Virus record (IMG/VR): IMGVR_UViG_3300045988_116781
Source: a virus
Reading direction: 5' to 3' (one strand)
Length of the DNA stretch: 58,428 bases
Numbering within the stretch: the stretch's first letter is position 1; each line of letters starts with the position of its first letter. Shown piece by piece: positions 27,958-43,496 of the stretch. The notes beneath the pieces were generated by a model. The model made no database searches, was not told the origin of the DNA, and saw only the letters and a list, made by a program, of their open reading frames with translations. Both the position numbers and the translations under genes were made by a program.

Positions 27958-29082
27958 ATGGAAACAACGATTTTAAGCAAAAAGAACTGCCACAGGGTAG
28001 CAACGGTAAGACAGGCTGGCAATCCGAATGCGCCTGTCTTGGATTTCAAGTTTCGGGAACATGAGGTAAGCCGCAACTTCTTCGGAAGCCAGCGTGCGCA
28101 TCTTGCAGGTGATACGGTGATAGATGATACCGATACCGAAATGGGCAAATGGGAGGTGGTGTCATGGAAGTATGTCGAGAACTTCGAGGATATGTGGGAC
28201 TTGGCTGTACGTGCCTTTGACGGCACCAGCCACAGCCCGGAGGAACGTGCGAGGTTCTACATACATTCGTATGAGGATACCCTGCAAAGCGACCTGAAGC
28301 TAATACCGAACGAGGAACAGGAACGATACACCGCCAAATTCAGGGAATGGGTGCGTACCCTGTTCGAGAGACACTCACGGATACTCAGCCCGATGATTAC
28401 AGGACCAGCACGTTTCCCGACTTCGAGGAACAACAAGGCGAACAACGCCTATGACAATGCTGTGAACGAGTTTGAGGAATGGCGCAAACGGGCTGTTAAA
28501 GCCATCAACAAGCGTATCGAGGATGCAAAGCCGGAGGAACAGAAGCAAGCGGAAGAATGGCTGCGACTGAAACGTGATATTGAAGACATTGCCGCCACTC
28601 TGAAAGCCATTGACACAGGCGAAAACAAATACAGTTATCGTCCCTTGTTTGTATCGAGCCTGTACGGCAAGCTGGAGCGCATCGCCAATAACGGAAAGGC
28701 AGATTTGATACTGAAAGCGACCGAATATATCAAACAACTAAACGAGACATTGCCCAAACCGATATTTACAGCCCGTCACAAGTTTTGGAAGCTCTCGGAG
28801 GTGGTGCAGGCTTCAATCAAAAAGGAAAGCGAATTACGGGGCAAGGATGATGCAGAAATGGCATTTGACGGCGGCATGGTGGTAAAGAACTATTCGGAGG
28901 ACAGACTTCAAATCCTGTTCGATGAAAAGCCGGATCAGGAAACAATCTCGAAATTGAAACATAACGGCTTCCGCTGGTCGCCACGCTTCAAAGCCTGGCA
29001 ACGTCAGCTTACCTCAAATTCTTTCTATGCGTGTGCGAGGGTAATACCTGTTACAGTTGAACAATTAAAAACAATGAATTAA
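27958..29082 (+). CDS. hypothetical protein; C-terminus resembles DUF3560-type proteins of conjugative elements
   Basis: 374 aa. The C-terminal RLQILFDEKPDQETISKLKHNGFRWSPRFKAWQRQL matches, from memory, the FDgKP...LK.hGFrWsp...aW signature. Confidence 0.4.
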   Translation: METTILSKKNCHRVATVRQAGNPNAPVLDFKFREHEVSRNFFGSQRAHLAGDTVIDDTDTEMGKWEVVSWKYVENFEDMWDLAVRAFDGTSHSPEERARFYIHSYEDTLQSDLKLIPNEEQERYTAKFREWVRTLFERHSRILSPMITGPARFPTSRNNKANNAYDNAVNEFEEWRKRAVKAINKRIEDAKPEEQKQAEEWLRLKRDIEDIAATLKAIDTGENKYSYRPLFVSSLYGKLERIANNGKADLILKATEYIKQLNETLPKPIFTARHKFWKLSEVVQASIKKESELRGKDDAEMAFDGGMVVKNYSEDRLQILFDEKPDQETISKLKHNGFRWSPRFKAWQRQLTSNSFYACARVIPVTVEQLKTMN

Positions 29083-29093
29083 AAATCGGGACT

Positions 29094-29465
29094 ATGAATA
29101 AAGAACAAATTAAAAAGGAATATAACGAACTCGTAAATAGCATTGAGGAAATGAGAATGTATGATGGGCGAAATACTGTTGACAGATATGTATGTAAGCG
29201 GTGTGGAGCGCATCTTTACACGACTTATATAGACAAGGGGGTTACGCCGTTCACCATTCAATGCAGGAGATGCTCAGTAGGTACAATGATACATGATAAG
29301 ACGTTCAGGAAAGAAACGATACCGTCATATATAGTGGTTTTGGGATGGTATAGACCTACATTAGAACAAACCTTAAGAATGTCAGAGGGGGCTATTTTTC
29401 ATGTTCTTAAAGGCGGTTTATTTTTGGAAGATGAGCTAAACGTAAATAGCGATGATAACGATTAA
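29094..29465 (+). CDS. hypothetical Cys4 zinc-ribbon protein
   Basis: 123 aa with CKRCGAHL...CRRCSVG. Confidence 0.45.
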   Translation: MNKEQIKKEYNELVNSIEEMRMYDGRNTVDRYVCKRCGAHLYTTYIDKGVTPFTIQCRRCSVGTMIHDKTFRKETIPSYIVVLGWYRPTLEQTLRMSEGAIFHVLKGGLFLEDELNVNSDDND

Positions 29466-29697
29466 CGATATTGTATTCTATGACAAACCGGGAAGTTGCG
29501 GCTCATGTCCGTTCTTTGATAACGGAGGAACCAGTAGCTTCCACGGTTCTGAAATAGGTTACTGCCGTTTGTTTGATGAAATGCACAGGCGATGGATAAA
29601 TCCGCCCCGGAGATGTCAAAAGCTGTTCAACAAGGCGTTCAGGATGCCGGAGGGCAGCAGGTTGGTAATAGTAAGAAAGGAGGAAGAAAATGAGTAA
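29452..29697 (+). CDS. hypothetical Cys-rich small protein
   Basis: 81-aa ORF with CGSCPFF...YCRLF...RRCQ. Confidence 0.4.
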   Translation: MITINDIVFYDKPGSCGSCPFFDNGGTSSFHGSEIGYCRLFDEMHRRWINPPRRCQKLFNKAFRMPEGSRLVIVRKEEENE

Positions 29698-29941
29698 GAT
29701 ATACCATGTCGAGATGAAAGAGCCGATAGACGGAAAGCGGCACTTCTACTTCGGCTCACAGGCCGCTATTTACGAGGTTTTCAGCACCTCACAGGTGGGC
29801 ATAAGCTACAAATCATTGACGAACAAATACGACCTCACAGAGAAGCCGTACGAGAACAGGAAGTGCATAATCCGCATCGGGGAACTTATCAGGAAGCCGA
29901 CCAACAGAGGGCCGAGACCTCAGCAGTTTTTCCACTACTGA
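29690..29941 (+). CDS. hypothetical small protein
   Basis: 83-aa ORF. Confidence 0.4.
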   Translation: MSKIYHVEMKEPIDGKRHFYFGSQAAIYEVFSTSQVGISYKSLTNKYDLTEKPYENRKCIIRIGELIRKPTNRGPRPQQFFHY

Positions 29942-30007
29942 GACCAGTACCTGATAGAAAATCCGTACCTTTGTAGTAACATTCAACGCAATCAAATAGA
30001 TATAACC

Positions 30008-30763
30008 ATGTTAGGAGCAATTATAGGTGATATTGTAGGCTCACGTTTCGAGTTCAACAATGTAAAAAGCAAGAGTTTTAAGCTGTTCACGAAAGAGTGT
30101 TCATTTACAGACGATACAATCTGTACGGTAGCCGTTGCGGATGCTATCTTGTCCGGCAAGAGTTACCGGGACAGCGTACACGAATGGTGCAGCAAATATC
30201 CTAATCCGATGGGTGGGTACGGCGGCTCATTCGCACAATGGGTACATTCTGACGATCCACAACCTTATTACAGTTTCGGCAACGGCTCAGCGATGCGTGT
30301 AAGTCCGATTGGCTTATATTATCATACTGCTGATAGTGTGCTTTTGGAAGCAAAAAAAACTGCTGAAATAACCCATGACCACCCTGAAGGTATCAAGGGG
30401 GCTCAGGTTACCGCCATGTGCGTATTTATGTCTCGTTGGGGATTTACAACTGACGACATAACTAAATATGCTGTATCTGAATATGGAGAAATCCCGAAAT
30501 TCGTGCCGTTCTCCAATCCGTTCAACGAGACCTGCATGAATGCTGTCCCCGTGTCAGTCTCATGTGTTCTTAATAGCACCTGTTTTGAGGAAGCCATAAG
30601 AAACGCAATGATTGTCGGTGGTGACAGCGATACGATAGGTGCGATTACAGGCGGCATTGCGGAAGCGATGTACGGTGTTCCCGTAGACCTGAAAGATATT
30701 GCGATGTCGTATCTTCCTGATGAAATGAAACGAGTTATAAACCGATTTTACAGTGAGCTATGA
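30008..30763 (+). CDS. ADP-ribosylglycohydrolase family protein
   Basis: 251 aa. The N-terminal MLGAIIGDIVGSRFEF...SFTDDT and the C-terminal GGDSDTIGAITGGIAEAMYG are hallmark ARH/DraG-family motifs. Confidence 0.8.
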   Translation: MLGAIIGDIVGSRFEFNNVKSKSFKLFTKECSFTDDTICTVAVADAILSGKSYRDSVHEWCSKYPNPMGGYGGSFAQWVHSDDPQPYYSFGNGSAMRVSPIGLYYHTADSVLLEAKKTAEITHDHPEGIKGAQVTAMCVFMSRWGFTTDDITKYAVSEYGEIPKFVPFSNPFNETCMNAVPVSVSCVLNSTCFEEAIRNAMIVGGDSDTIGAITGGIAEAMYGVPVDLKDIAMSYLPDEMKRVINRFYSEL

Positions 30764-31074
30764 GCAAACGAGATGAGCTATTGACTTCATGTAGATATTA
30801 CAAGGGCGAAAATGAAAACCCTTACAAAGATGGGAACAAAGCCCTATTTTGGGAATATGAGAAGAATTGGCTTGATATGTTCCTTGACGAGAGCCAAACC
30901 CTCATAGAATACAGGGATGAGTATGTAAAAGACGGTCTGCTGGACTTTGAGAGCAAGGATGATGTACCTACAACTCTCAAAGCCATGCTTTACAACCGTT
31001 TTCTCTATTGGTTGGAAGGGTCTCCGACCGAGTTCAAAAAATTCTATAAGGAACAGTATTTGGGTCAAATCTGA
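30760..31074 (+). CDS. hypothetical protein
   Basis: 104-aa ORF. It overlaps the ARH stop by 4 nt and is convergent with the minor head gene, overlapping it by 10 nt. Confidence 0.45.
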   Translation: MSKRDELLTSCRYYKGENENPYKDGNKALFWEYEKNWLDMFLDESQTLIEYRDEYVKDGLLDFESKDDVPTTLKAMLYNRFLYWLEGSPTEFKKFYKEQYLGQI

Positions 31075-33563
31075 CCTACCACTTCAACGTCTATAAAGTA
31101 TCTCCAGCCCGATTTCTCAACCTTTGTGATGCGAAATCGGGTATTTCTTTGTATCAGCATTTCGTTCTCAGAAGAATATGCAGAACGTCCGTCAATATAG
31201 AGCATCTTTGTCCCTTTCGGGCAGTAAATGTTTATTATATTACCACCAAATCCTGTCCCTTTTGCTGCTCCACAACTCATAAATGCAGTATCTGTGATGC
31301 TTTTACCCACAAGGGCGTTCAGGCTGCTTTCGTCCAAAGATGCAAGTTGCAGGAATCCTGCTAATCCCTCATCATCAACTCCACGTTGTAGCCAAATATC
31401 CTTATCGTATGTCGATTTATTGATAAGGTTTGTCAGGCTGTCTATGTCTTTCGGTGCTAACGGGCTTTCATTGTCAAGAGGAACATTGCCTATACCCTTG
31501 AAGTTAGATTTTCCCCATGCACCGTCATATCCTCTCAAAGGCCTGTTTACATATCCGCTTCCTGATGTATATCTCCAAGCCGCATCCTGTTCTTCTTTTG
31601 AAGCAGTATTGTATATCTCATCCGCTTTGTCCTTGAACTTGTTTACAGAATTGCTGGATGTCTTACACCATATAGCCTTGTCCTTTCTGTCTTTGGTATA
31701 AGCACTCTCATCAAAGGTTGTTGATTGACCTTTGCCGAACAGTCTTTTGGCGTTCCGTTGAGCCGCAGCTTTGTCGAGTTGCTCACGCTTCTTTTTGATG
31801 TCGAGTATCGTTTGCTGTGCGGCTGCTTTGTCCTTGCTGGATATAGCATCCTGCAATTTTGCCACAAGGTCAAGATACGGTTGCGACTTCGTTTTGAAGC
31901 TGCTTATGTTCTTGAACTCATTGCTGATGTTCTCCCAATCGAGAGCGTCCGACACTTTTTCGAGCTGCTTCTTGTAGGCATTCTGCGCCACCTCCCATGT
32001 GGAGTATTTCTGATGTTTCTGTACCCAGTCTATCTCGAACGACAGTTTGGACTTCTGTTTCTCCAAAGAGAGACCAGCCCAACTGTCCAGCTTCTTCTGC
32101 ACGGCTTCATTAACAGCTTTTGCCTCCGACATAGAGAACTGACGTGCAACCTGCATCGGATTGTCGAGATATGAGTAGGAGAGGATTTCCTTGCCGACCG
32201 CTTTCAGCCTGCGAGCCTCTTTGAGTATCGTATCGAGATTGCCGCCGTTGAGTGCTTTCTGCAATGCGGATGTATCAACGTCCGAGATACCGCCCATGTA
32301 GGACAGAATGCTCTGGCCGTACTTGCGTGTAGCCCTGCGCTCGTTCCATGCCTTGCGTATGGCCGCTTCCTGTTCGGGTGTCCTGCTGGCGTGCCGGATC
32401 TCTGCGTTGCGTAAAGTCCAACGCCGCTTGATGTCCTGTATCTGTCCGGGCGTTCTTGCCGCATGGCGTTCTTTGGCTGTTTCCAAAGCCGTAGGGGGAT
32501 TTATAATCCTGTCAACGGTCTTCTTATTGTTCTTGATGAAATAAGGCAGCGTACCACGTTCTTTTGCCTTTTCTATGCGTTCTGCGTTGTCTATTGCCCA
32601 TGACTTGAAGTTACCCGGCATGTCGGCAATGACTTTCCCCGAAATGTCGTAATCCTCTCCATTCAGTTTCGCCTGCTGCATGGCCATCATATCCTTTTCT
32701 GATAACAAGACAGGAACTACGTAGCAGAAGCATTGAGGATGCCATCCGTCAAAGACAAAATTTTTAGGATATCTTCCGGCAAGTGTGTCACAGATATCGG
32801 TCACAGGGTGGTTGCGTGACAGGTGTATTTCCTGACCTATCACGAAGTCCATCTGCTGCCAGCGTGTATTGTCAGCCCTGCGGTATGCGATGTTTGTTTC
32901 TGTTCGGGCGATACGCATGGCGTTCTTTGCCGATGAGCGGTAAACGCCCTGTCCCGGGTGATAAGCCTTTGCCGCCTTTGACAGCTTCAGGTTGCCTTTC
33001 TCATCTCGTATTCTGCGGAACAGCTTATCGGGATTATTCAGGTATTGCCGGACGTATCTCGATATTTGGGATGCGCTGTCGCCGTCTCCAATGGCCACGG
33101 TCATGGCAAGTTCCATTTCGGAGCGTAGCTGCTTCACGGGCTGCCAAATACGGTCTGACAGGTTAAGTCCGGCTTCGCTCCGGCTGATGAAAGCCTCCAT
33201 AGCCTCCGTGTTTCGCTCAAACCATCCTGCGAAACGCTTGTCTGAAAGTATCTCCTTACCGAAACAGGATGCGGCAAGCTCATCGCAAGCGGTGTTAGCC
33301 TCGTCCCATTCAAGAGTGATGTCGTTCTTGATTGCGGCATATACTGCGGAATGTAGGTTTCTAAGCCTGTCCGAGACTTTCTTTGCGATTTTCTTCTGTT
33401 CTGAATAGCGAAACACCTCTCCATCGTCCAAATGCGGTACAGAGGACGTTAAGGCAAGAATATCGTTTACCGCTACGGCAAACAATTTCCTTACCTGTTC
33501 CGCATACCTCTCTGTACGGTTGAGAAGTGCGAGATATTCCTTTTTCCCTGTTTCAGTAACCAT
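31065..33563 (-). CDS. minor head protein (SPP1 gp7 / Mu F-like) fused to a C-terminal ADP-ribosyltransferase domain
   Basis: 832 aa. The central IARTETNIAYRRADN...HPQCFCY is typical of gp7/MuF head morphogenesis proteins. The C-terminal roughly 190 aa carry R-S-E ART motifs: YVNRPLR, FMSCG and ENEMLIQ. Confidence 0.75.
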   Translation of the reverse strand: MVTETGKKEYLALLNRTERYAEQVRKLFAVAVNDILALTSSVPHLDDGEVFRYSEQKKIAKKVSDRLRNLHSAVYAAIKNDITLEWDEANTACDELAASCFGKEILSDKRFAGWFERNTEAMEAFISRSEAGLNLSDRIWQPVKQLRSEMELAMTVAIGDGDSASQISRYVRQYLNNPDKLFRRIRDEKGNLKLSKAAKAYHPGQGVYRSSAKNAMRIARTETNIAYRRADNTRWQQMDFVIGQEIHLSRNHPVTDICDTLAGRYPKNFVFDGWHPQCFCYVVPVLLSEKDMMAMQQAKLNGEDYDISGKVIADMPGNFKSWAIDNAERIEKAKERGTLPYFIKNNKKTVDRIINPPTALETAKERHAARTPGQIQDIKRRWTLRNAEIRHASRTPEQEAAIRKAWNERRATRKYGQSILSYMGGISDVDTSALQKALNGGNLDTILKEARRLKAVGKEILSYSYLDNPMQVARQFSMSEAKAVNEAVQKKLDSWAGLSLEKQKSKLSFEIDWVQKHQKYSTWEVAQNAYKKQLEKVSDALDWENISNEFKNISSFKTKSQPYLDLVAKLQDAISSKDKAAAQQTILDIKKKREQLDKAAAQRNAKRLFGKGQSTTFDESAYTKDRKDKAIWCKTSSNSVNKFKDKADEIYNTASKEEQDAAWRYTSGSGYVNRPLRGYDGAWGKSNFKGIGNVPLDNESPLAPKDIDSLTNLINKSTYDKDIWLQRGVDDEGLAGFLQLASLDESSLNALVGKSITDTAFMSCGAAKGTGFGGNIINIYCPKGTKMLYIDGRSAYSSENEMLIQRNTRFRITKVEKSGWRYFIDVEVVGQI

Positions 33564-33570
33564 AAATCAG

Positions 33571-35016
33571 TTATTCAGCCGTTGGTAATACTTCTTCCTC
33601 CGTTCTGTTCCCGAATAAATCTGCATTCGCTTTCTGCCGTTCCTCTTTCTCCTTTTCAATCCGCTGCAACTCCTTTGCATGGTCTTTGACAAGCGGATTG
33701 AGTTCAACTGCGCCCTCTTGGCTGATAAGCCCAGCATCGTACATCTTGACGATATTGGATATGCATTCCGTGATGTCCTCCCCGAACGGCTCTTGAAACT
33801 CGTGCCCGATCTGCAGTTTGGAGCATTCCTCTTTCAGGGAAATGTCAAGCACGTTTCCGATAATGGCGGTTATCAGACTGGCCGTCCTGTCAAGCAGTTC
33901 ATCGTGTATCTCCTTATGCTTCGATGCCTTGATGTCTGCAAGCAGCATGACCGTACGCAACGCCTTTGCCGAAAGCTGCGAGATGCTTTTCATCGTGTCG
34001 AGACTTATTTTCGGCGTGAATGTCTTGGAATAGATTTGGTCTTGCAGCCATTCGATTTCGTCTTTCTTCGATTGCGGCGCATTATCCCATGTGAGGTACT
34101 TTGCAGCCTTATCCACTCCGTCCTGTCCTTTCGTGATGAGCAGTTTGTTGGCATCTTTCTTTTCAGGCAGATTTTTTACCACTTCTGCATCCATGATGGC
34201 GATAGGGTCGGCGAAATAGTCGTTTGTGTCCGCAGAGCGGCTGGCGATGTACTCCTCACGGTGTATCAGAGGCTCAACGCCTGCCCATTCCTTTTTCTGC
34301 TGGAACAGGATGATGGGGATTTTCCCCACGAGGTTTTCTTCTTCCTCCACCTCCCAGCCGAGACCGCCACGGACACACTTGTAGATGGTGTTCGGGGTAT
34401 AGATGTCGAAATGATACTCCACCTTGTCGTTTGCCTTGACGTAGTATCCCCAGCCTATGGAAATGATGTTCTCGAACTGGTCCCAGCGCACATAGATGTC
34501 ATCTCCCTTGCTCTTTGCGAGAACACGTATCTGTACGTCAGGGTTGCCGTCATTATCCCTGAATACACGGAACAGCATTGCACTCTCCGTTTCCGCTCCG
34601 GCTATGCGCTTGCATTGACGTATCTTGCTGTTGAAATGTGTATTCTTGATAACGTCCATGTACTTGTTGAAAGCCCTGTCCGTATTCTCTGATAGTTGAG
34701 ACCATTTCACGGGACGACCATACAGGAACACGAGCGAGATTTCATTGATATACACAGGGTACGGTACAGGCAGTTTCCATACAGGCTCTTTCCGTAGGAA
34801 CTTGCCGTTCTTGTCCGTGATGATTTTGTCCTCACGCTTCATTATCTGATGCGAGAACGTGTCATAGTCCTTGATAGCGTCAAGGATAAGCTCGCTCCTG
34901 TTGCTCATCGAGTCTATGACCGCACCGATGTCTTTGGCTTGCAACAGCTTCTCGAACTCCTGATTACGTCCCACGAGCTGATTGACGTAATTCCGAAATA
35001 CATTAAAGTAATTCAT
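33571..35016 (-). CDS. portal protein
   Basis: 481 aa. It lies between TerL and the gp7-like minor head protein. Confidence 0.7.
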   Translation of the reverse strand: MNYFNVFRNYVNQLVGRNQEFEKLLQAKDIGAVIDSMSNRSELILDAIKDYDTFSHQIMKREDKIITDKNGKFLRKEPVWKLPVPYPVYINEISLVFLYGRPVKWSQLSENTDRAFNKYMDVIKNTHFNSKIRQCKRIAGAETESAMLFRVFRDNDGNPDVQIRVLAKSKGDDIYVRWDQFENIISIGWGYYVKANDKVEYHFDIYTPNTIYKCVRGGLGWEVEEEENLVGKIPIILFQQKKEWAGVEPLIHREEYIASRSADTNDYFADPIAIMDAEVVKNLPEKKDANKLLITKGQDGVDKAAKYLTWDNAPQSKKDEIEWLQDQIYSKTFTPKISLDTMKSISQLSAKALRTVMLLADIKASKHKEIHDELLDRTASLITAIIGNVLDISLKEECSKLQIGHEFQEPFGEDITECISNIVKMYDAGLISQEGAVELNPLVKDHAKELQRIEKEKEERQKANADLFGNRTEEEVLPTAE

Positions 35017-35037
35017 AACTTGTTTTATTTTAATTGT

Positions 35038-36510
35038 TTACAATCCAAATGTACCTTTGCCGAGTGCGTCATAGTCTATGTCGTCATCATCGTTCAAAAG
35101 GTCGTTTATAGCATATCCGAGTATATCTACATATTCGTCATGGGGCTGGGTCGGGAAACCGCATACCTCTTTCAGGAACTCCTCATTCCAGCTGCCCTCC
35201 ACGATGTACACCCGGCCGCACTCTATGCGAGGGGAAACCACACGCAGCCTGACCTCCTTACTGTCGTCAGGTGTGGGCGTTTCCTTGACATTGAGCGTGG
35301 ATATTTCCTTTAGCATCTGAACAACGCTGATACCGTTCGCCTTTGGCTCGATATGCAGCTTGCTCTCTCCTGTTGCCCCGTGCGATGCCATATACTCCGG
35401 AAGAAAGCGCAACAGATCCGGCATCTCTTTCCACACTTTTTGCGCATCCACGAGATACACGCTGTTCCTTATCCTGCAAGCAGCCAAAATGCCGCTCGGG
35501 TCGTTGTCTGTCCTCTGCTTCTTGTTGTATGCGGTATCGAGATAGAAGTGTATCGTTTCCCGAAACCGCAAAGCCATGAAGTCAGAGTACGATATCCTGC
35601 GAAACCACTCATCCTTGACAATGTTACCGCCGTCCACTATCGGGGACTGTTCGTATTGTCCTGCATAGCCGAGACTGCCGAGGTCTATTTTCGCTTCTTC
35701 CAGGACAGACCTGTTGAGCCGGACAGGGTCGAGAAGCCCGTCCACGTATTTGTCCCGAAGTTCAACGGGCTTTACCATGTCCGACAGTTCGGCTGGCAGA
35801 CACACGTGCCGTATCTTTTCGCCCTTGCGCTTCAACAGGTAGCCCGTAACGTCTTCCTCATGCAGACGCTGCATGACGGTAATCATCGGGGTGTTCTCCT
35901 TGTTTACCTTTCGTGAGGACAGCGTTTTCACATGCTCGTTTGCCTGTAATCTTAACGGCTCGCTGTCCGCCTGTTTCGGGTTCTGCGGGTCATCGTTGAT
36001 TATCACGTGGGCATGGAAGCCTGTAATGGTCGCACCTGTTGATGTGGCGTAACGGAAGCCTCCCTGCGTGTTCTCGTAGTGCTGCTTTCCCTGTTTATCA
36101 CGTCTCAATACGATTTCAGGAAACAGTTTGCGGAACTTGTCGCTCTGAATGATGTCCTTTGATTTCGTTGCGTGCTCTATTGACAGACCACCCGAATACG
36201 AGTTTGTAATAGCCCTCAATGTGGGGTCATTAATCCATAACCATACCGGGAACATGATTGTGACGATTGTCGATTTTGTTGTTCCCGGAGGAATATTGAT
36301 GATAAGGTCATAAGGTTTCGGCTCTCGGTTTATGATTGATACCGAGAGCTTCTGCAACTCATCGCACAGATAGGGTATGTGCCAGTTGTAAATGGGCTTT
36401 TCCGATATGATAACGTCCCAAAACATCTTCACGAAGTAGAAAAAACTCTTCCGGCACTCATCTGCTACGACTTGTATTCCCAACGCCGTATAATCAATGT
36501 TCCGTATCAT
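35038..36510 (-). CDS. terL: terminase large subunit
   Basis: 490 aa with Walker A-like PPGTTKST and Walker B-like VIINDDP. The C-terminal nuclease region is in a typical position. Confidence 0.85.
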   Translation of the reverse strand: MIRNIDYTALGIQVVADECRKSFFYFVKMFWDVIISEKPIYNWHIPYLCDELQKLSVSIINREPKPYDLIINIPPGTTKSTIVTIMFPVWLWINDPTLRAITNSYSGGLSIEHATKSKDIIQSDKFRKLFPEIVLRRDKQGKQHYENTQGGFRYATSTGATITGFHAHVIINDDPQNPKQADSEPLRLQANEHVKTLSSRKVNKENTPMITVMQRLHEEDVTGYLLKRKGEKIRHVCLPAELSDMVKPVELRDKYVDGLLDPVRLNRSVLEEAKIDLGSLGYAGQYEQSPIVDGGNIVKDEWFRRISYSDFMALRFRETIHFYLDTAYNKKQRTDNDPSGILAACRIRNSVYLVDAQKVWKEMPDLLRFLPEYMASHGATGESKLHIEPKANGISVVQMLKEISTLNVKETPTPDDSKEVRLRVVSPRIECGRVYIVEGSWNEEFLKEVCGFPTQPHDEYVDILGYAINDLLNDDDDIDYDALGKGTFGL

Positions 36511-36925
36511 TCAGCACCTGTTCCCCGATAGTTAGCAGGACTTTCCTCTGCTCATCCGTGAGCTTGCTCAAATCAATTTCGGCGGCTTTCAGCAACGGTT
36601 CTCCGTTAGCCCCCGTATGCTCCAACCGCTCACTATATCCACGGTCTTTCATCTGCGTTTTGGCGTAGAAGATTATCATCGTGGTGTCGCCCTCTTTCAT
36701 CTTCTTCAGGATAAGGGCTTCCGCAAAGTCCTTCTGCAGCTCCTTGATATCCTCCACCTTTTCGGCAAAGTCGCTGTCCTCCTTAAGCCACTTGTAGAAA
36801 GTGAAACGGGATATGCCAGCCGCCTTGCAGGCAGAAGCAACGATGCCGGAACTCTTGTTCAGGGCATCAAGCACAACCTCCTTGTCTTTGGCTATGCGTT
36901 CCTGTATTGTCTCATTTGTTGCCAC
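36494..36925 (-). CDS. terS: terminase small subunit
   Basis: 143 aa with an HTH (ACKAAGISRFTFYKWLKED). It overlaps the TerL start. Confidence 0.7.
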   Translation of the reverse strand: MATNETIQERIAKDKEVVLDALNKSSGIVASACKAAGISRFTFYKWLKEDSDFAEKVEDIKELQKDFAEALILKKMKEGDTTMIIFYAKTQMKDRGYSERLEHTGANGEPLLKAAEIDLSKLTDEQRKVLLTIGEQVLNDTEH

Positions 36926-38009
36926 GTCTTTCCTCTAATTGCTGGTTTTCTTTCATTATGTCGCCGAGTATTACCCGGTATGTCCTTTTTTTCGGGTCAC
37001 CTGCCACAAGCATTTGGTAAAGCCTCTTGCATGTTGCGGATGATGTGCGCTCATCTACACGGGCATACAGTTTCTTCGCTTCCTTGTAACCCGGGTACAT
37101 GTCGGGGTGCTGGCTCGCTTTCTTCATTTCCTCTTTGAGCACGATACGGTAATCCTTATCCTTGTCGAGGTCGAACTTCTGATCCTGCTTCGTGCTTCGG
37201 AACATATCAGTGTCCCAGTACAGCATCACGAGGTCGGCGTTCGGCTCTCTCCTGATGACACGTTCGTACAGGTCGGGATAGAACTCCAGCACCTTTGGCA
37301 AAGTCTTGATAGTATCGATTGAAAAGAACTGCGAAATCCTTAGCTTATTCAACGCTACGCCCACTTTGTATAGGTAGATGTAGGTCATGGGGATTTGAAG
37401 CCCGTACAGTTTGATGTAAAGCCATACATCGCTGTCTTTCCAATCATACATGGGATAGATGAACGGGCTTTTGTCCGTCTTTAACGATATGGCGGTTCTT
37501 CGCTGTACGCTTTCAGCCATACGTAGACCCACCATCTGCGGTACTTTCTTGAAAATCTTTTCCCCAAAATACTGATAGGTCATTCCCATACGGAAATCCT
37601 TGTGGTTGCGTATGGCGAACTTCGGCATGGGACGTACCCAAACGCTTTCCTTGCCCGGCTCCCAGCAGATAAAACTTTCATCGTTCGCCAACTTGTTGCA
37701 GCAGTTGTAGTGCTTTATGGGCAGACAGAACCAGTAGAACCTTGCTCCGAGAGAGAGAAAACGAGACCTCCAGTCCTTGACTATCTCCTCCACGTCAGGG
37801 TATATCGCTTCCTCATCGAAGAATATCACAATCAGACGGGAGAACGGTATGCCGTATTTCTGCATCGTCTTGACAACGATGTCAGCCATACAGATACTGT
37901 CCTTGCCGCCTGAAAAGCTCAACGCAACGAGCTTGTTGTTATTGAAGGCTTCGAGAACCCTGCGCTCCGCCGCCTCCACGACCGAAATATTCAACGTCTT
38001 TTGGAACAT
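36912..38009 (-). CDS. PAPS reductase-like PP-loop ATP pyrophosphatase (IbrA-like)
   Basis: 365 aa with the PP-loop LSFSGGKDS and a long C-terminal extension, as in IbrA-type proteins. Confidence 0.65.
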   Translation of the reverse strand: MFQKTLNISVVEAAERRVLEAFNNNKLVALSFSGGKDSICMADIVVKTMQKYGIPFSRLIVIFFDEEAIYPDVEEIVKDWRSRFLSLGARFYWFCLPIKHYNCCNKLANDESFICWEPGKESVWVRPMPKFAIRNHKDFRMGMTYQYFGEKIFKKVPQMVGLRMAESVQRRTAISLKTDKSPFIYPMYDWKDSDVWLYIKLYGLQIPMTYIYLYKVGVALNKLRISQFFSIDTIKTLPKVLEFYPDLYERVIRREPNADLVMLYWDTDMFRSTKQDQKFDLDKDKDYRIVLKEEMKKASQHPDMYPGYKEAKKLYARVDERTSSATCKRLYQMLVAGDPKKRTYRVILGDIMKENQQLEERRGNK

Positions 38010-38012
38010 AGG

Positions 38013-38543
38013 CTATCCACGTTTGATGATTGTCGCCTTGCTGAATGTCTGATGCCGCTGTGTTACGAGCTTCAGGAATGTTTCCCGGTCTATTTTTGAA
38101 AGACGGAAGATTTCCTCACGGCTCATGCCCAGCTTCTTCGATATTTCGTCCACCGAAAGCCCCTCATCGAGAAGTTTCTTGACGATGTTCTCCATAGGCT
38201 CAAGCAGGTGCGTACCCCTTGCACGGTTGAATGTCACAGTTCCGGCCATGTCGTCCGTTGCGTTGTCATGCGCAACAATCACGACCGGGATTTTACCGCC
38301 GAGCAATGTCTTCAACGGCTCACGCCCTGACACCATCCAACGGTGGAAACCGTCTATGATAGTGTAGTCGGGACGTATCACGATAGGGAAACAGAAACCG
38401 TTATTGAGAATACTTTCCGTAAGCAGTTTCAGGTTCTTTTCAAGCACCTTGTTAGGGTTGTAGTCATTCGGTTTGACCAACTCACGGTCTATGAACTGCA
38501 AGTTCCGCAGCGGGGCGAAAAGGTCTTTTTGTTGCTTGCTCAT
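38013..38543 (-). CDS. ParB-like nuclease domain protein (IbrB-like)
   Basis: The start MSKQQKD overlaps the upstream stop (ATGA). The protein has the ParB/Srx-type motif IIDGFHRW and a C-terminal HTH-like region (VDEISKKLGMSREEIFRL). Confidence 0.6.
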   Translation of the reverse strand: MSKQQKDLFAPLRNLQFIDRELVKPNDYNPNKVLEKNLKLLTESILNNGFCFPIVIRPDYTIIDGFHRWMVSGREPLKTLLGGKIPVVIVAHDNATDDMAGTVTFNRARGTHLLEPMENIVKKLLDEGLSVDEISKKLGMSREEIFRLSKIDRETFLKLVTQRHQTFSKATIIKRG

Positions 38544-39121
38544 AACGTAATCTCCTTTCCGCAATGAGGACAAACCATAGTGCGTGCTGGCTGCATGCCG
38601 CTGTCGATGTCCTCAAATTCATCTGTCTGTTCCTCCTGTTTCTCCTGCGGTATGCTCTCCACGGACTTCTTCTGTGCTGGCTGCGTAAAGTCCACGCCCA
38701 TATTGTCAGTGGATACCTCGTTGATGATTGCTTCCAAGTAGTCATCCGTAAAGCCGATGATACCTGTCTCCCCAATCTCACGGATGATATCCTCCACCTT
38801 GCCGAAATTGATGTAGGACAGGGATTGGATTTTGTTGTCCTCCAAAACGAGCTTCATTTTCTGCTTGTCGGACAGACCATGCATGACAACCACGTCCGCA
38901 TCCGTGCGGCCGAGCTTTTCGAGTGCGAGCTTCTTACCGTGTCCGCAGAGTATCTGCATCTTCTCATCCACGATGATAGGATAATACTGCCCGTATGTTT
39001 CCATACTTTGAGCGATAGCCTTTACCTGTTCCTCCGGATGGATGTTCGGATTGTTGGGGAACTCTTTTAATTCCGTAACCTTTACGGTCTTTCTTTCCTG
39101 TGTTACTTTTGATTTTGACAT
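38540..39121 (-). CDS. ParB-like nuclease domain protein with C-terminal zinc-ribbon-like tail
   Basis: 193 aa with NPNIHPEEQVKAIAQSMETYGQYYPIIVDE..ILCGHGKKLA and a C-terminal CPHCGKE. Confidence 0.6.
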   Translation of the reverse strand: MSKSKVTQERKTVKVTELKEFPNNPNIHPEEQVKAIAQSMETYGQYYPIIVDEKMQILCGHGKKLALEKLGRTDADVVVMHGLSDKQKMKLVLEDNKIQSLSYINFGKVEDIIREIGETGIIGFTDDYLEAIINEVSTDNMGVDFTQPAQKKSVESIPQEKQEEQTDEFEDIDSGMQPARTMVCPHCGKEITL

Positions 39122-39122
39122 A

Positions 39123-39917
39123 TCATTTAGCGTTTAGAAATTGTTTTGCTGATTCAATGTATTGAGCCGCTTCCTCCACGATTTGAGGTGCAATCCCATA
39201 CACCTCCTGCCAACCGTTCTGTACAGAGCCGCACCATTGGCGTGCAGCCCATACACCCGTGCCAACCGTGAAGCCGTTTTTCCAATCGTAGATAGGCGGC
39301 ATGTTGCGCCCCATGAAGTAGTGTATCACGGCCAGTACCTCCTCATGCTTCCAATTGGCGATAGGGGACAGGCGTGTTACCCCGTTCCGGTCGGTGTAGC
39401 AGTTCTGACCCTTACCGCCCGTATAGTTGCCGTCCTGCGTGCGCCTGCCGAGACAGATAACCTCCAAATGCTTCTCCTTGAAGAACCAAGCCTGTGCCCG
39501 GTGCTGTATGATGTGAAACCATTGTGCCGCTTTCTTGCTGTCGGTCGGGAAAAGCATATCCTGATGCTTTGCGAGCCATTGCAGGTCAAGTTTGGCGTTG
39601 TCCCATACTGCAAGACCTTTCGGGCTGTTCTCTTTAATCCAAGCCAAGAATTGGGGGTATTCGAGTTTTGAGGCTATGCCGATAACGCAGTCTGTAATGC
39701 CAGCCTTTTCACAGACGTATTGCAGGGCAAGGCTGTCCTTTCCTCCGCTCCAAGCGTATCCGGCTCGTTTGCCTGCCGTCTGCTTCCTGATGTCGGCTAC
39801 AGCATGATCCACGAGAGCCTGTGCCTCTTGCAGGGACACGAGACTTTCTATCTCGTTCCAAGCCTTGACGAAATCGTCATTGCTTGAAGTCTGTTTCTTT
39901 CCTATTATCTGTTTCAT
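39123..39917 (-). CDS. PAPS reductase-like PP-loop ATP pyrophosphatase
   Basis: 264 aa with the PP-loop YAWSGGKDS. Confidence 0.65.
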   Translation of the reverse strand: MKQIIGKKQTSSNDDFVKAWNEIESLVSLQEAQALVDHAVADIRKQTAGKRAGYAWSGGKDSLALQYVCEKAGITDCVIGIASKLEYPQFLAWIKENSPKGLAVWDNAKLDLQWLAKHQDMLFPTDSKKAAQWFHIIQHRAQAWFFKEKHLEVICLGRRTQDGNYTGGKGQNCYTDRNGVTRLSPIANWKHEEVLAVIHYFMGRNMPPIYDWKNGFTVGTGVWAARQWCGSVQNGWQEVYGIAPQIVEEAAQYIESAKQFLNAK

Positions 39918-39923
39918 ATCCTG

Positions 39924-40526
39924 TCAGTTGAAATTGTACGCTATGTTCACGCCGATAGTCTCCATGCCGCCGTCATATTTCAGCTGAAACCAAAGTTCAG
40001 GCGTGAGTTTGAAGCGGACGTTAGCTATCACTCCGGGCATTGCCCTCATGGAATATCCCACGTTGAACACAAGCCACCTGTAAGTATAACCACCCACGAC
40101 CTGCAATCGGTCGCCGTCACAGAAGCGGTCGCCGTTGAAAAGGTTGTCCCAAGTGGCATCCACCATAAAGCCCAAAGGCAGCTTTACCGTTCCCGATAAA
40201 GTCTGCCTGTATTTGTTGGTTTTCCAGTCATAGATGTTCCGGCTCAATATGTAGAAGCGGTCGGCAATATTGAAGTTCAGCCATATTGCCGGAGAGAACG
40301 CCTGTGTATTGAAGTTGTACTGCGCAACGCCTGTCACGTTAAACCATTTCGCCACGTCCATCCTGTAACCTACAAACGGGTTGAATGTGGCAGAGCCTCC
40401 GTCATAGGGCTGGCTCAGCGAGAGCCAAACCCTATACTTTGTCGGTTGTGTGATACCGTCATATACCTGTGCCTTTGTGGTCGCCATTACCAGCAGAGCC
40501 GCTATGAGTAGTAGAAATCGTTTCAT
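39924..40526 (-). CDS. small outer-membrane beta-barrel protein candidate
   Basis: 200 aa. It has the signal peptide MKRFLLLIAALLVMATTKAQ, alternating aromatic/polar strand patterns, and an aromatic C-terminus (NIAYNFN). Confidence 0.5.
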   Translation of the reverse strand: MKRFLLLIAALLVMATTKAQVYDGITQPTKYRVWLSLSQPYDGGSATFNPFVGYRMDVAKWFNVTGVAQYNFNTQAFSPAIWLNFNIADRFYILSRNIYDWKTNKYRQTLSGTVKLPLGFMVDATWDNLFNGDRFCDGDRLQVVGGYTYRWLVFNVGYSMRAMPGVIANVRFKLTPELWFQLKYDGGMETIGVNIAYNFN

Positions 40527-40541
40527 CGTTCCAATTTTGAA

Positions 40542-42011
40542 TTAGTATAAATTGAGGTTTCTGTTCACAGTAGGTTTGTCTTTCATCACTCTCGCCATGA
40601 TGCCCGATGTGCAGATAGTGAGAAGCGAGCCTGTGAGGATGAGCGGAATGTTGCCGTGCAGGTTACCGTATGCGAAAATCGGAAGACCTACAATCAGGCT
40701 GGCCATGATGCCGTAATACAGTCCACGTTCTGACATCTTCCTGCCGTTGATGGCAAAGATTGTCGGGAGCATTACGGAGCTTCTCAAAGTACCGTAGAAC
40801 AGGAACAGGCAGGTTATGGTTATTCCCGGTATGTTTGCTACCACGATAGCCAAGACTGTAACGGCGACCATAGCGATACGGGCGATGTCCACCGAACTGA
40901 GTATGCGCTTTCCTATGCGTATTGCTCCGAGACTGCCTTTGCCGAACTTGTCTGCAATCCGCATTGATACATCATGTCCTGCGATTGAGGACACGGCGCA
41001 CATGATACTGTCCACGGTCGAGACGAGACCTGACAGGATAAGCAGGAAAAACAGGTAGAGAAACCATTTCGGGGTAAAGGCGATAACAGCCCCTACATTG
41101 ACAAGCTGCGTGTCGGCAATATCCAAACCTGCCCCCGATGCGAAAAAGCCGAATATGGACAGGGAAACGGGCACTACGGCGAATATCAGAGCCGCAAGCA
41201 GCATCGTATTCTTCACTTTGTCATGCTTTACACAGAATACACGTTGCCAAAACATCTGGTCGCCGAATGTTCCTGAAAGCAATCCTATCGTGGTGGGTAT
41301 TCCGAAAGAGAGCATCACGGCTATGCCGTTCTTATCGAACAGGTTGTCGAAATCGCCGCTTATGCCGCCCAAACCATTGACAAGCGTATCAAATCCGGCG
41401 TTCGATGTCATGATAGGCAGTCCCATGAGAAGCACAACCACGATGAAGCCCATTTTCACGAAGTCTGTCGTGATGCTCCCTCTGATACCGTTCGTAAGCG
41501 AGTAGAGCAGCGGTATTACTGCGAGCAATACGGTCGTCCAAAAGAAAGGTAGTCCCGTAATCTTGTGGAAGATTGCCGCTCCGGCCAAAAGCTGTACCGC
41601 CATTGAACACACCTGAAGCCCGAAACTCTCTATCAGGAACATGTTGTGTGCCCTCTTGCTGTACTTCTCCCGTATGTAGTCCGAAAACGTCCATCCGTTA
41701 GGTCTGAGGTTGCGCATCTTCTTTGCAAAGAATGCGAACAGCACCAGCGTAAGCACGTTCGGAACTACGAACCAAAATACACCAGCTAATCCCTGCGTAT
41801 AGGCTTTCTCCGCCGCCGTGAACATGGACGGTGCCCATACCCACGTTGCCGCCATTGAAAAGGCTGTCAAAATCCACGATGCCGAACGGTCGGCCACCAA
41901 AAACTCCGATTTGGTCTGTTCCCTCTTCCGGAGCAATGCGATGATGCCTACCATTGCAAGAAAATATCCGATTATCAGCATCAATCCGTCTGTCTTGCTT
42001 AAAATTTCCAT
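40542..42011 (-). CDS. sodium:solute symporter (SSS) family transporter
   Basis: 489 aa and polytopic (about 12-13 hydrophobic helices). The N-terminal region FLVADRSASWILTAFSMAATWVWAPSMF is typical of the SSS family. Confidence 0.7.
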   Translation of the reverse strand: MEILSKTDGLMLIIGYFLAMVGIIALLRKREQTKSEFLVADRSASWILTAFSMAATWVWAPSMFTAAEKAYTQGLAGVFWFVVPNVLTLVLFAFFAKKMRNLRPNGWTFSDYIREKYSKRAHNMFLIESFGLQVCSMAVQLLAGAAIFHKITGLPFFWTTVLLAVIPLLYSLTNGIRGSITTDFVKMGFIVVVLLMGLPIMTSNAGFDTLVNGLGGISGDFDNLFDKNGIAVMLSFGIPTTIGLLSGTFGDQMFWQRVFCVKHDKVKNTMLLAALIFAVVPVSLSIFGFFASGAGLDIADTQLVNVGAVIAFTPKWFLYLFFLLILSGLVSTVDSIMCAVSSIAGHDVSMRIADKFGKGSLGAIRIGKRILSSVDIARIAMVAVTVLAIVVANIPGITITCLFLFYGTLRSSVMLPTIFAINGRKMSERGLYYGIMASLIVGLPIFAYGNLHGNIPLILTGSLLTICTSGIMARVMKDKPTVNRNLNLY

Positions 42012-42046
42012 GTCGTTTTTTGAAATGTTAGATTTGTTAGTCCGTG

Positions 42047-42081
42047 CAAATATACTAATAAAGCGTACTTGTTAGGTACGC
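42047..42081 (-). promoter_or_regulatory. candidate promoter plus palindrome upstream of the transporter/packaging operon
   Basis: The minus strand reads GCGTACCTAACAAGTACGC (42063-42081), then 8 nt, then the -7 box TATATTTG (42047-42054). This is about 35 nt upstream of the ATG at 42011. Confidence 0.45.
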
Positions 42082-42102
42082 TTTAAGCCAAAAAAAGAGT
42101 TT

Positions 42103-42450
42103 TTACCTCAAATAATCATTTACTTGCGCTATAAAGCTCTCGATTGAGCGGCACAAAATGTACTTGTAGCCAACATTCTCCACCGACTGCTGCCAAGCCT
42201 TTTGCGAGTCACGCTGCCGACCGTCCACCGTCTTCATCTCGATACACAGACCGTGATAGCCTTTGGACGGAAGAAGCAACAGCAGGTCTGCAACTCCAGC
42301 CGTTACACCTTCGCCTTTCATAATCCTTGCCTCGAACTTTCCACGCTGACCGCCGTTCGGTACTGCGAACAGGTTTAAGGCGAAGTGCGGATATTGAAGC
42401 CTGAACCACTTCACGCAAGCCGTCTGTATTCTGCTTTCGTCATGTCTCAT
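42103..42450 (-). CDS. VRR-NUC domain nuclease
   Basis: 115 aa with GVADLLLLLP...GLCIEMKT (D...ExK nuclease motif). Confidence 0.7.
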   Translation of the reverse strand: MRHDESRIQTACVKWFRLQYPHFALNLFAVPNGGQRGKFEARIMKGEGVTAGVADLLLLLPSKGYHGLCIEMKTVDGRQRDSQKAWQQSVENVGYKYILCRSIESFIAQVNDYLR

Positions 42451-42477
42451 ACGTCAAAACCTCCTTTCTTGCACAAA

Positions 42478-42903
42478 TCAGAACGGCAAATCGTCATCAT
42501 CTGCACCTTGCGAGCTGCCGCCTCCCGAATAGGTGTTCTGCTGGGGTTGTTGCTGGCCGTTGTCCTGCCTGCGGTCGAGCATCTGCATGATGTCCCCGTG
42601 AATTTCGGTCACATACCGCTTTATGCCGTTCCGGTCGTCATAGCTGCGTGTCCTTATCTTTCCCTCGATATACACGGACGAGCCTTTATGCAGGTACTGT
42701 CCGGCAATCTCTGCGAGTTTTCCCCACAGTACGATGTTGTGCCATTCGGTGCGGTCGGGTACGGTAGTGCCTCCCTGTGTGGTGTAGCCCTTTTCGGTTG
42801 TCGCCACCGAGAACTGCGTGACCTTTGTCCCGGTTTGCAGGGTGTCCACTTTCGGCTCTTGCCCCACAAACCCGATAATCGTTACCTTGTTGATTGAAGC
42901 CAT
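42478..42903 (-). CDS. ssb: single-stranded DNA-binding protein
   Basis: 141 aa with an OB-fold N-terminus (INKVTIIGFVGQEPKV...WHNIVLWGKLAE), a Gly/Gln-rich linker and an acidic tip (DDDLPF). Confidence 0.92.
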   Translation of the reverse strand: MASINKVTIIGFVGQEPKVDTLQTGTKVTQFSVATTEKGYTTQGGTTVPDRTEWHNIVLWGKLAEIAGQYLHKGSSVYIEGKIRTRSYDDRNGIKRYVTEIHGDIMQMLDRRQDNGQQQPQQNTYSGGGSSQGADDDDLPF

Positions 42904-42938
42904 TGTACTACTAATAATGTTTGTATTTATATTATATA

Positions 42939-43496
42939 TTATACTATACTATCCTCTACTGACTTGTTAGTATCAGAGCCGTAGCGGAACGGTGTAAAGT
43001 GTATCACGATACCCGTAAACAGCTTCTTCTCCTGTGGCTCTTTGCCGAAAAACCACTCCTTGAAGTCCTCCAAAGGCAAACCGTCATTCGCTGCAAGTTG
43101 CTCTACATTTGCAACCTGTTTGCCGTCTATTGCCGCTTTGAGCGTTTTTGTGTCAGGGTCGTATGACATGGTTATACGTTGGCATCCGATACAGTTGCCG
43201 TGTATCTGGAAGATTTCCTCCTGTGGCGAGTTGTAGGGGCGTGCGCTCCATTGACGGACGGAAAGGTAGAACCCTCCGCTGTCAATCTTGCTGATATTAT
43301 GCTTCCACCTTGCAAAGTTTGCCCGAATGGTGTGTATCTTGCGCCCCTTTACAACCGTACCGTCAAGCTCCGATACCGTTTCCTGACAGCCGTTGAGCGT
43401 GTTGTTCAGTTTCTCCCTGAAGTGGGTAGGCTCTCCTTTCCTCGAATGACAGAGGGGAAAGCGTTTCGATAGTGTCAGAATGATTTTCTTCTTCAT
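42939..43496 (-). CDS. hypothetical protein
   Basis: 185-aa ORF in the early operon. Confidence 0.45.
   Translation of the reverse strand: MKKKIILTLSKRFPLCHSRKGEPTHFREKLNNTLNGCQETVSELDGTVVKGRKIHTIRANFARWKHNISKIDSGGFYLSVRQWSARPYNSPQEEIFQIHGNCIGCQRITMSYDPDTKTLKAAIDGKQVANVEQLAANDGLPLEDFKEWFFGKEPQEKKLFTGIVIHFTPFRYGSDTNKSVEDSIV

Follow-up and report, generated by a model that had tools for sequence, protein, structure and literature searches.

The window analysed here is the whole 58,428-nucleotide stretch of the IMG/VR virus record IMGVR_UViG_3300045988_116781. On its minus strand, genes for two PP-loop proteins resembling PAPS reductases (PAPS_A and PAPS_B) and for two ParB-like proteins (ParB_A and ParB_B) run up to the small terminase gene terS. 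We found that a gene for a sodium:solute symporter and one for a small predicted outer-membrane barrel lie directly upstream of these four genes, and that the natural unit is a conserved five- or six-gene cassette, beginning with a membrane transporter, in gut prophages of two phyla. More than 150 independent loci show this gene order, which is far beyond chance. The cassette is a widespread transporter-linked variant of the IbrA/IbrB-type ParB/PP-loop system, and the observation is real and non-random.

The original prediction had placed four minus-strand open reading frames (ORFs) ahead of terS as two tandem pairs. The ORF translations confirmed all four with the motifs quoted for them, followed by terS (Table 1). 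Its boundaries missed the two upstream genes of the unit, and it overlooked the link of the entire set to a symporter. It had also described the stops and starts as overlapping (ATGA), and the junction sequences bore this out between ParB_A and ParB_B only. The spacer is 1 nucleotide between PAPS_A and ParB_A and 3 nucleotides between ParB_B and PAPS_B, and the GTG-started terS overlaps the end of PAPS_B by 14 nucleotides.

Recurrence and composition of the cassette

Family hidden Markov models (HMMs) were built from the window proteins and used to tabulate related loci. Viral loci (n = 72) were fetched through PAPS_B, and bacterial genome loci (n = 80) through a PAPS_A alignment. About 60 of the 72 viral contigs show the order symporter-barrel-PAPS_A-ParB_A-ParB_B-PAPS_B-terS-terL-portal, and contig ends truncate most of the others. 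In about 78 of the 80 bacterial loci, the gene immediately upstream of PAPS_A or ParB_A is the symporter. Fifty-nine of the 80 have exactly the order symporter-PAPS_A-ParB_A-PAPS_B-ParB_B, and seven further loci are minor variants. All of these come from Clostridia (e.g. Lachnospiraceae, Oscillospiraceae, Anaerotruncus), have the tandem order, and are without the barrel gene. Another 12 of the 80 are of the Bacteroidales form, in which the barrel gene is present and the last two genes are inverted. Thus, the mirror arrangement described in the original prediction holds for the Bacteroidales form, whereas the Clostridia form is tandem, and the mirror order is that of one lineage. Two contigs of metagenome-assembled genomes binned as Eubacteriales/Oscillospiraceae (L096 and L097) carry the Bacteroidales-type cassette including the barrel gene, and their taxon labels are probably a binning error.

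A search reaching more distant IbrA relatives returned cassettes with the symporter but without PAPS_A (L229-L237, L244). Their order is symporter-ParB_A-PAPS_B-ParB_B in L231-L237 and L244, and symporter-barrel-ParB_A-ParB_B-PAPS_B in L229 and L230. Three named phages carry related trios. Riemerella phage PJN03 has, of the cassette, only ParB_A, ParB_B, and PAPS_B. In Faecalibacterium phage Taranis, an unrelated multi-pass membrane protein occupies the position of the symporter and is followed by a ParB_A-like "nuclease", IbrA, and IbrB. In mycobacteriophage Gadjet, gp1 (ParB_A-like), gp4 (IbrA-like), and gp5 (IbrB-like) are followed directly by TerL. As in the cassette, the three genes stand beside the terminase in all three phages, but none of them has an SSF symporter or PAPS_A. 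The PAPS_A-less variants and the phage trios indicate that ParB_A belongs with IbrA/IbrB and that PAPS_A is optional. The core of the cassette is therefore the symporter, ParB_A, IbrA, and IbrB, with PAPS_A as an add-on. This speaks against "two pairs" as the natural unit, since ParB_A accompanies IbrA/IbrB even where PAPS_A is missing. Membership of the Taranis membrane protein in SSF was not demonstrable (hhalign probability 9%). In Gadjet (L252, 2148-4471), the start of TerL overlaps the IbrB-like gp5, and the annotation includes no small terminase.

Other variants have lost or gained genes. Four loci (L019-L022; e.g. L020, 3675-7958) have ParB_A, an IbrA-like PAPS_B, an IbrB-like ParB_B, and PAPS_A without the symporter, and they encode a weak class-II glutamine-amidotransferase-like protein and a cupin protein between PAPS_A and terS. 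Two deletion variants have lost most of the cassette and kept terS, terL, and portal. In L086 (5098-7083), VRR-NUC runs straight into a truncated ParB_B and PAPS_B, while in L091 (519-3868) the symporter and barrel genes are kept and PAPS_B is reduced to residues 113-354. Because both keep the packaging genes, the cassette is dispensable, as expected of an accessory function. Protein P0072 (411 amino acids, on a 1.8-kb contig) is a full PAPS_A-type protein joined directly to a PAPS_B-type C-terminal helical domain (VSQFFSIDT...GDPKLR), and it is a deletion fusion that arose naturally or else an artefact of the assembly. Three loci (L135, L158, L162) have an additional PAPS_B-family gene upstream of the symporter besides the usual copy.

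Among 50,697 GenBank phage records, the symporter and PAPS_A were found solely in one unannotated faecal contig (MT836198), and no cultured phage has the full cassette. The IbrA type alone is present in 220 of the GenBank phage records.

Families of the cassette proteins

The two pairs are not paralogous copies, as the word "duplicated" in the original prediction would imply. BLASTP matches between PAPS_A and PAPS_B were confined to the SGGKDS and YDWK motifs, and ParB_A matched ParB_B over 47 residues with 28% identity. In a profile-profile comparison of the two PP-loop families (40- and 41-sequence alignments), just 52 columns aligned, around the PP-loop. The likeness is thus at the level of motifs, and the PAPS_A/ParB_A pair and the PAPS_B/ParB_B pair (pair B) have in common only the PP-loop or ParB core. 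A recent duplication of the pairs was rejected on both comparisons.

The IbrA/IbrB type, proposed in the original prediction, fits one of the pairs. PAPS_B matched Escherichia coli YbdN (29% identity over 279 amino acids, E = 7e-29), and its family HMM scored YbdN at 4.2e-56. ParB_B matched YbdM with 35% identity (E = 2e-27). By its sequences, pair B is a true member of the IbrA/IbrB (YbdN/YbdM) family, while no relation of PAPS_A or ParB_A to YbdN/YbdM of E. coli K-12 was found. IbrA/IbrB of E. coli ECOR-9 and their K-12 paralogues YbdN/YbdM (COG3969 PAPS-reductase-like/DUF3440 plus ParB-like) are homologous to PAPS_B and ParB_B and are likewise encoded by adjacent genes. SGGKDS, GxRxxES, PxYDW, PNDYNPN, DGFHR, and NRARG are common to YbdN/YbdM and pair B. 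Unlike IbrA/IbrB, the phage pair lies within a late operon that also encodes a symporter, another ParB protein, and in most cases another PP-loop enzyme, and its gene order is inverted in the Bacteroidales cassette. Unlike YbdN, phage PAPS_B has the near-conserved Cys95/103/115 and His100. It also has no Pfam DUF3440 match at E ≤ 0.01, and the BLAST alignment with YbdN reaches residue 254 through the conserved RISQFFS/RICEPFG.

PAPS_A matched phrog_424 (E = 6.6e-20) and reached 22.3 bits against Pfam PAPS_reduct, under the cut-off of 22.5. PAPS_B matched phrog_2302 (E = 4e-73), and its best stretch against PAPS_reduct spans residues 156-206 only. The invariant motifs are WSGGKDS, QH, GRRxxDGN, RxSP, and HE in the PAPS_A family, and SGGKDS, DEE, H100, GxRxxESxQR, PxYDW, RxSQFFSxDT, and GDPKxR in the PAPS_B family. 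No conserved cysteine motif was present in the PAPS_A family alignment. Cys95/103/115 of PAPS_B are 93-98% conserved; some members carry other residues at these positions, and YbdN lacks the cysteines. Since SGGKDS and other catalytic-type motifs are invariant in both families, these proteins should be enzymes and not mere regulators.

In the alignment, SSSFG takes the place of the P-loop in E. coli CysH, and the C-terminus of that enzyme carries the catalytic cysteine within ECGLH. PAPS_A and PAPS_B both retain an intact SGGKDS and have no cysteine where CysH has ECGLH, and CysH gave no match to the cassette family HMMs at E ≤ 10. Therefore, PAPS_A and PAPS_B are predicted to be ATP pyrophosphatases, i.e. 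adenylating enzymes, and not PAPS reductases. A role as CysH or as a sulfur auxiliary metabolic gene was rejected on the catalytic motifs and the HMM search, and the usual label "cysH auxiliary metabolic gene" is unsupported by these sequences.

AF2 models were obtained with a pLDDT (predicted local distance difference test) of 94 for PAPS_A and 77.6 for PAPS_B. Their fold matches in PDB and BFVD were CysH, the GMP synthase ATP-PPase, TtuA, CysD, FAD synthase, TilS, and LarE, with TM (template modelling) scores of at most 0.53. Naming the enzymes from structures failed, since both databases gave superfamily-level PP-loop matches only. PAPS_A had no detectable relation to lambda NinC. PAPS_B weakly matched BrxP of BREX type 4 (E = 1e-8, 31.9 bits), which also contains a PAPS-reductase-like PP-loop domain, but the BrxP profile is 779 positions long and includes further domains, and other BREX genes are absent here.

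ParB_A matched phrog_620 (E = 1.6e-39), and a Pfam search gave no match. It also matched the N-terminal part of phrog_498 "DNA methyltransferase" (E = 7.6e-29; positions 30-187 of 633) and the N-terminal part of PADLOC MTase_II (E = 9.5e-10). By these matches, ParB_A is of the ParB N-domain type that phages fuse to DNA methyltransferases. The genes of these phage methyltransferases typically lie just before terS as well. Unlike them, ParB_A is free-standing and ends after the acidic linker and CPHCG, without a methyltransferase domain. It has the conserved IlxGxG and CPxCG, and at box II, where it reads CGHGKK, the arginines are missing and G.G alone is conserved.

ParB_B matched phrog_2159 (E = 4e-60) and Pfam ParB_N (E = 4.9e-7). 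In 81 sequences, PNDYNPNKV, TIIDGFHRW, NRARGTH, and the helix-turn-helix motif GMxxEExFRLS were at least 95% conserved. Its box II is the DGxHR variant, as in sulfiredoxin, DndB, and SerK, and not GERR. A weak match to the ADP-dependent serine kinase SerK was also found (NCBIfam E = 7e-4; PDB free serine kinase E = 0.03). The GERRxRA box II arginines of canonical ParB CTPase partition proteins are missing from both ParB proteins. No ParA partner was present among the window ORFs scanned.

The symporter matched Pfam SSF (E = 4.8e-24, residues 37-436 against profile positions 1-404 of 406), phrog_20720 (E = 6e-125), and TIGR00813 (E = 1.6e-30; 106.5 bits, under its 184-bit cut-off). Its nearest solved structures are the DUR3 urea/polyamine symporters and the choline transporter CHT1, both distant, and the DUR3 match is restricted to the N-terminal 190 residues. 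A substrate could not be named, because DUR3, CHT1, PanF, and PutP were all distant matches and the 120 closest homologues are generically named. The 200-amino-acid protein encoded next has a signal peptide and a C-terminus that suggest a barrel topology (Table 1). It had no match in Pfam, PHROG, NCBIfam, or PDB, and Pfam and PDB were empty even at E = 10. Its family HMM matched solely in Bacteroidales-type loci, i.e. where the host has an outer membrane. The restriction of the barrel to the Bacteroidales version and the Taranis membrane protein at the same position make transport look integral to the cassette.

Position in the late operon and neighbouring genes

The cassette always stands directly before the packaging genes, for three unrelated large-terminase families, namely phrog_38/Terminase_6C in the window, Terminase_3 in L020, and lambda GpA in L164 (Anaerotruncus colihominis DSM 17241). 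In Flavobacterium phage FCV-1, an IbrB/IbrA pair sits between TerL and portal. As the original prediction had noted, such pairs recur in phages, and in PJN03, Taranis, Gadjet, and FCV-1 they are beside packaging genes. No minus-strand terminator-like site was found from the symporter until beyond the head genes. The cassette thus probably represents the first genes of a late operon.

A 91-nucleotide intergenic region ahead of the symporter may be the promoter. It contains a 10-bp hairpin (AAAGCGTAC...GTACGCTTT; fold -17 kcal/mol, z = -2.3) and TATATTTG, which matches the Bacteroides -7 box TAnnTTTG, 43 nucleotides before the symporter ATG. A TAACA-repeat motif (TAACAAATCTAACA, 42026-42039) follows the -7-like box and occurs once in the window. 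The layout of hairpin, TAnnTTTG, and AACAAATGTTACA is common to seven related Bacteroidales loci (L095, L036, L132, L096, L146, L097, L080). Of these, L095 is on contig NZ_JAUDEL010000018.1 of Mediterranea massiliensis 118_WCHN and has a 98% identical PAPS_A.

In Clostridia, a regulator gene lies just upstream (phrog_36 regulator in L164; RinA-like in Taranis). The leader of the Clostridia symporter contains a conserved GTAAAATYCTAAATC element followed by a GC-rich terminator-like hairpin with a T-run, as well as a GCTCCTYY...GGAGG hairpin predicted to sequester the ribosome-binding site of the symporter (L133, 6430-6625; equivalents in L141, L153, L108, L164, L173, L163, L166, L157, and others). 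The anti-Shine-Dalgarno arm is often overlaid by a mini-ORF of 3-6 codons (e.g. MKLL*, MLL*, MLPP*). In eight Firmicutes loci, no Rfam RNA family or riboswitch scored at the gathering threshold ahead of the symporter, and the L133 leader gave a sub-threshold DUF2815 RNA match of 15.6 bits. The leader could be an antitermination target, or a riboswitch whose ligand would name the transported compound.

Table 1. Features of the cassette region in the window, with the mean identity of the window protein to the Clostridia versions
Feature	Coordinates	Strand	Description	Mean identity
Intergenic control region	42012-42102	minus	91 nt ahead of the cassette; candidate late promoter with operator	
Sodium:solute symporter family protein	40542-42011	minus	489 aa; first cassette gene	42%
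Small predicted outer-membrane beta-barrel protein	39924-40526	minus	200 aa; signal peptide MKRFLLLIAALLVMATTKAQ, C-terminal ...IAYNF	
PAPS_A	39123-39917	minus	264 aa, YAWSGGKDS; PP-loop ATP-pyrophosphatase-fold protein, phrog_424, accessory cassette member	52% (range 50-56%)
ParB_A	38540-39121	minus	193 aa; divergent ParB/Srx N-domain, acidic linker, C-terminal CPxCG	29%
ParB_B	38013-38543	minus	176 aa counted from ATG, IIDGFHRW; IbrB/YbdM-type ParB/Srx domain and helix-turn-helix	59%
PAPS_B	36912-38009	minus	365 aa, SFSGGKDS; IbrA/YbdN-type PP-loop protein with helical C-terminal domain	43%
terS (small terminase subunit)	36494-36925	minus	phrog_4044 E = 3.5e-12; Pfam Sf6_terminase E = 1.9e-5; GTG start; packaging operon continues downstream	
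terL (large terminase subunit)	35038-36510	minus	phrog_38 E = 3.3e-90; Terminase_6C	
Portal	33571-35016	minus	downstream of terL	

Several features lie elsewhere in the window. A tyrosine integrase gene (1338-2483, minus; phrog_1 E = 3e-52) indicates that the element is a temperate prophage, and identical 24-mers (TGATTTTGGATTTGTTATAACAAA) at 860-883 and 1020-1043 on the plus strand, 160 nucleotides apart beside the integrase, may be arm-type sites. A tRNA-Ser (GCU) gene is located at 21626-21711 (minus) within the structural-gene region. The minus-strand late genes are interrupted by a plus-strand island (26800-30800) with reversed GC and AT skew, which may be an inserted module and which encodes a primase-like protein (27958-29082, phrog_19458). 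The gene at 31065-33563 (minus) encodes an 832-amino-acid minor head/head-morphogenesis protein with a C-terminal Bxa-type ADP-ribosyltransferase domain (phrog_16625 E = 9e-202), and a divergent ADP-ribosylglycohydrolase gene adjoins it (30008-30763, plus; phrog_6572 E = 3e-65). Together they look like a virion-delivered toxin with its antidote.

Possible functions of the cassette

We tentatively favour a late-expressed, ATP-dependent adenylating system that is directed at nucleic acid, most likely at phage DNA before packaging, and fed by an imported metabolite, a reading that we consider possible without calling it probable. A DNA modification or packaging-associated role, as put forward in the original prediction, seems the most plausible class of explanation. 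The four genes would be the enzymatic and DNA-binding part of a late-operon cassette and would be made together with the packaging proteins. The ParB/Srx proteins might guide the PP-loop enzymes to phage DNA that has been replicated and is about to be packaged, where the enzymes would activate a group by adenylation, consuming ATP, while the symporter would supply a small co-substrate that is scarce in the cell. The likely pay-off would be that the packaged DNA is protected from host restriction-type defences. DNA as the target, the feeding of the enzymes by the symporter, and the anti-restriction benefit are steps that we infer.

Two adenylating enzymes and two ParB/Srx proteins linked to an uptake system, in two phyla and in late operons, suggest a catalysis that consumes an imported small molecule. 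The symporter-less L020-type loci with their amidotransferase-like and cupin genes fit the need for a small-molecule donor. A nucleic-acid target is suggested because ParB_B has a helix-turn-helix, ParB_A is akin to the domain of the methyltransferases, the genes are positioned at the packaging genes, the cassette is dispensable, and there are precedents in the DndB-DndC and DpdB-DpdA partnerships.

DndC belongs to the PP-loop, PAPS-reductase-like ATP pyrophosphatases. For DNA-modifying enzymes with a ParB-like partner there are established examples, namely DndB with DndC and DpdB with DpdA (PMC12839542). In these systems (phosphorothioation and 7-deazaguanine in DNA, respectively), a ParB/Srx-superfamily protein likewise accompanies a DNA-modifying enzyme. 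However, the cassette has no DndA/D/E, DpdA, DpdC, or invariant Fe-S cysteines, and it has a transporter instead. None of the four proteins matched a Dnd model, including that of DndC, in PADLOC (E ≤ 0.01). Moreover, dndA (or iscS), dndD, and dndE were absent among the window neighbours (symporter, barrel, VRR-NUC, terS, terL) and in the more than 150 related loci. DndC-type phosphorothioation was therefore rejected, since no DndC HMM match or DndA/D/E partner was found and the cysteines are not fully conserved.

Several points weigh against adenylation directed at DNA. DNA modification itself was not observed in this analysis of sequences. No nickase, SMC-like ATPase, cysteine desulfurase, glycosylase, or transglycosylase was found alongside the cassette, and no parS-like repeats were found, the repeats in 35000-43000 being at chance level only. 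It is difficult to specify how PP-loop chemistry could act on duplex DNA and leave base pairing intact. Furthermore, ParB/Srx folds can be small-molecule kinases, and a purely small-molecule pathway fits the enzymes equally well, in line with the SerK match of ParB_B and with FAD synthase and FMN adenylyltransferase as the best fold matches of PAPS_B. The only genetic result for the family, by Sandt et al. in 2002, is reportedly that IbrAB activate prophage eib genes. The ybdNM genes of E. coli K-12 are located on the chromosome and controlled by a LysR-type repressor (PMC9068703).

A more specific form of the favoured reading is a so far unrecognised pathway of gut prophages for modifying DNA (or another nucleic acid) with its own metabolite uptake, through the symporter and, in Bacteroidales, an outer-membrane channel, in which two ParB-guided PP-loop enzymes would attach the metabolite to the genome just before packaging by a chemistry unlike Dnd, Ssp, and Dpd; in this detail we regard it as somewhat unlikely. 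The small-molecule pathway itself, which we judge unlikely, would have the symporter import a metabolite, the ParB/Srx proteins phosphorylate it (cf. SerK, sulfiredoxin), and the PP-loop proteins adenylylate it, as in riboflavin to FMN to FAD, with DNA not being a substrate. The product could be a cofactor, a nucleotide conjugate, or a counter-defence metabolite. The weak SerK match, the tight cross-phylum transporter linkage, and the amidotransferase-like and cupin genes of the L020-type variant agree with such a pathway. The top fold matches of PAPS_B, human FAD synthase and yeast FMN adenylyltransferase, agree as well, but they are at superfamily level only (TM ≤ 0.36). The pathway also leaves the fixed place of the genes in or beside the packaging modules of unrelated phages unexplained, and it sits poorly with the highly conserved helix-turn-helix of ParB_B and with ParB_A being of the DNA-methyltransferase-fused type. 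As packaging helpers, the ParB-like proteins would tag or compact the phage genome for the terminase, and the symporter would bring in a counter-ion, e.g. a polyamine, for packing DNA into the head. The genes do lie beside or inside the packaging modules of very different phages, with the IbrB-like gene of Gadjet directly before TerL and no terS annotated, and DUR3 urea/polyamine transporters are the nearest solved relatives of the symporter. Such a helper role is nevertheless improbable, since the window has its own terS, some relatives keep terS, terL, and portal yet have lost the cassette, two PP-loop enzymes would be left without a role, and the DUR3 match is only partial.

Phage papers label these genes as IbrA/IbrB "co-activators" or as PAPS reductase/cysH auxiliary metabolic genes, described as boosting host sulfur metabolism (PMC4541368, PMC11318856, PMC12323421, PMC10434257, PMC6145125, bioRxiv 10.1101/2021.01.05.425418). 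One of these papers gives phrog_424 and phrog_2302, at a distance of two ORFs, for a Clostridium clostridioforme prophage and does not comment on it. We also found the annotation "co-activator of prophage gene expression" on an IbrA/IbrB-type phage record. If the proteins act as IbrA/IbrB do on eib, they would switch on late, virion, or lysogenic-conversion genes, e.g. by counter-silencing. The membership of pair B in the IbrA/IbrB family, the helix-turn-helix of ParB_B, and the location of the cassette at the boundary of replication and late genes are in keeping with this, but we consider it quite unlikely. The cassette follows the candidate late promoter and overlaps terS, which makes it probably late itself, and its Firmicutes relatives already have a dedicated upstream regulator. 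A plain activator needs neither invariant catalytic motifs in two ATP pyrophosphatases nor a linked transporter, and the deletion variants retain the packaging genes. The usual annotation as sulfate-assimilation auxiliary metabolic genes (viral cysH/cysD) draws on partial matches to Pfam PAPS_reduct and NCBIfam CysD and on the label in the literature (PMC11318856, PMC12323421, PMC10434257, bioRxiv 10.1101/2021.01.05.425418). It is highly improbable, given SGGKDS instead of SSSFG, the lack of a counterpart to the ECGLH cysteine in either protein, the missing CysH match to the family HMMs, the score of PAPS_A under the Pfam gathering score, and obligatory ParB partners that have no place in sulfate reduction.

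In the literature searched, no paper was found on the cassette, on the transporter linkage, or on the mechanism of phage ParB/PAPS-reductase-like pairs. The original prediction held the biochemical function of these pairs to be unresolved, and the accessible literature indeed gives none.

Gut-virome studies count the common phage ParB/PAPS-reductase-like pairs as sulfur-assimilation genes, and the catalytic signature says that they are not CysH. If two ParB-guided enzymes attach an imported metabolite to the genome, many "cysH/cysD auxiliary metabolic genes" of gut viromes would be reassigned to the cassette. Since the IbrA/IbrB-type pair is tied to a transporter across two phyla, with an outer-membrane channel only where there is an outer membrane, a specific small molecule is probably involved. 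The transporter linkage thereby makes the function testable, as a question of which metabolite is placed onto what target. If DNA is the target, the cassette would represent a new phage counter-defence chemistry in dominant human gut bacteria.

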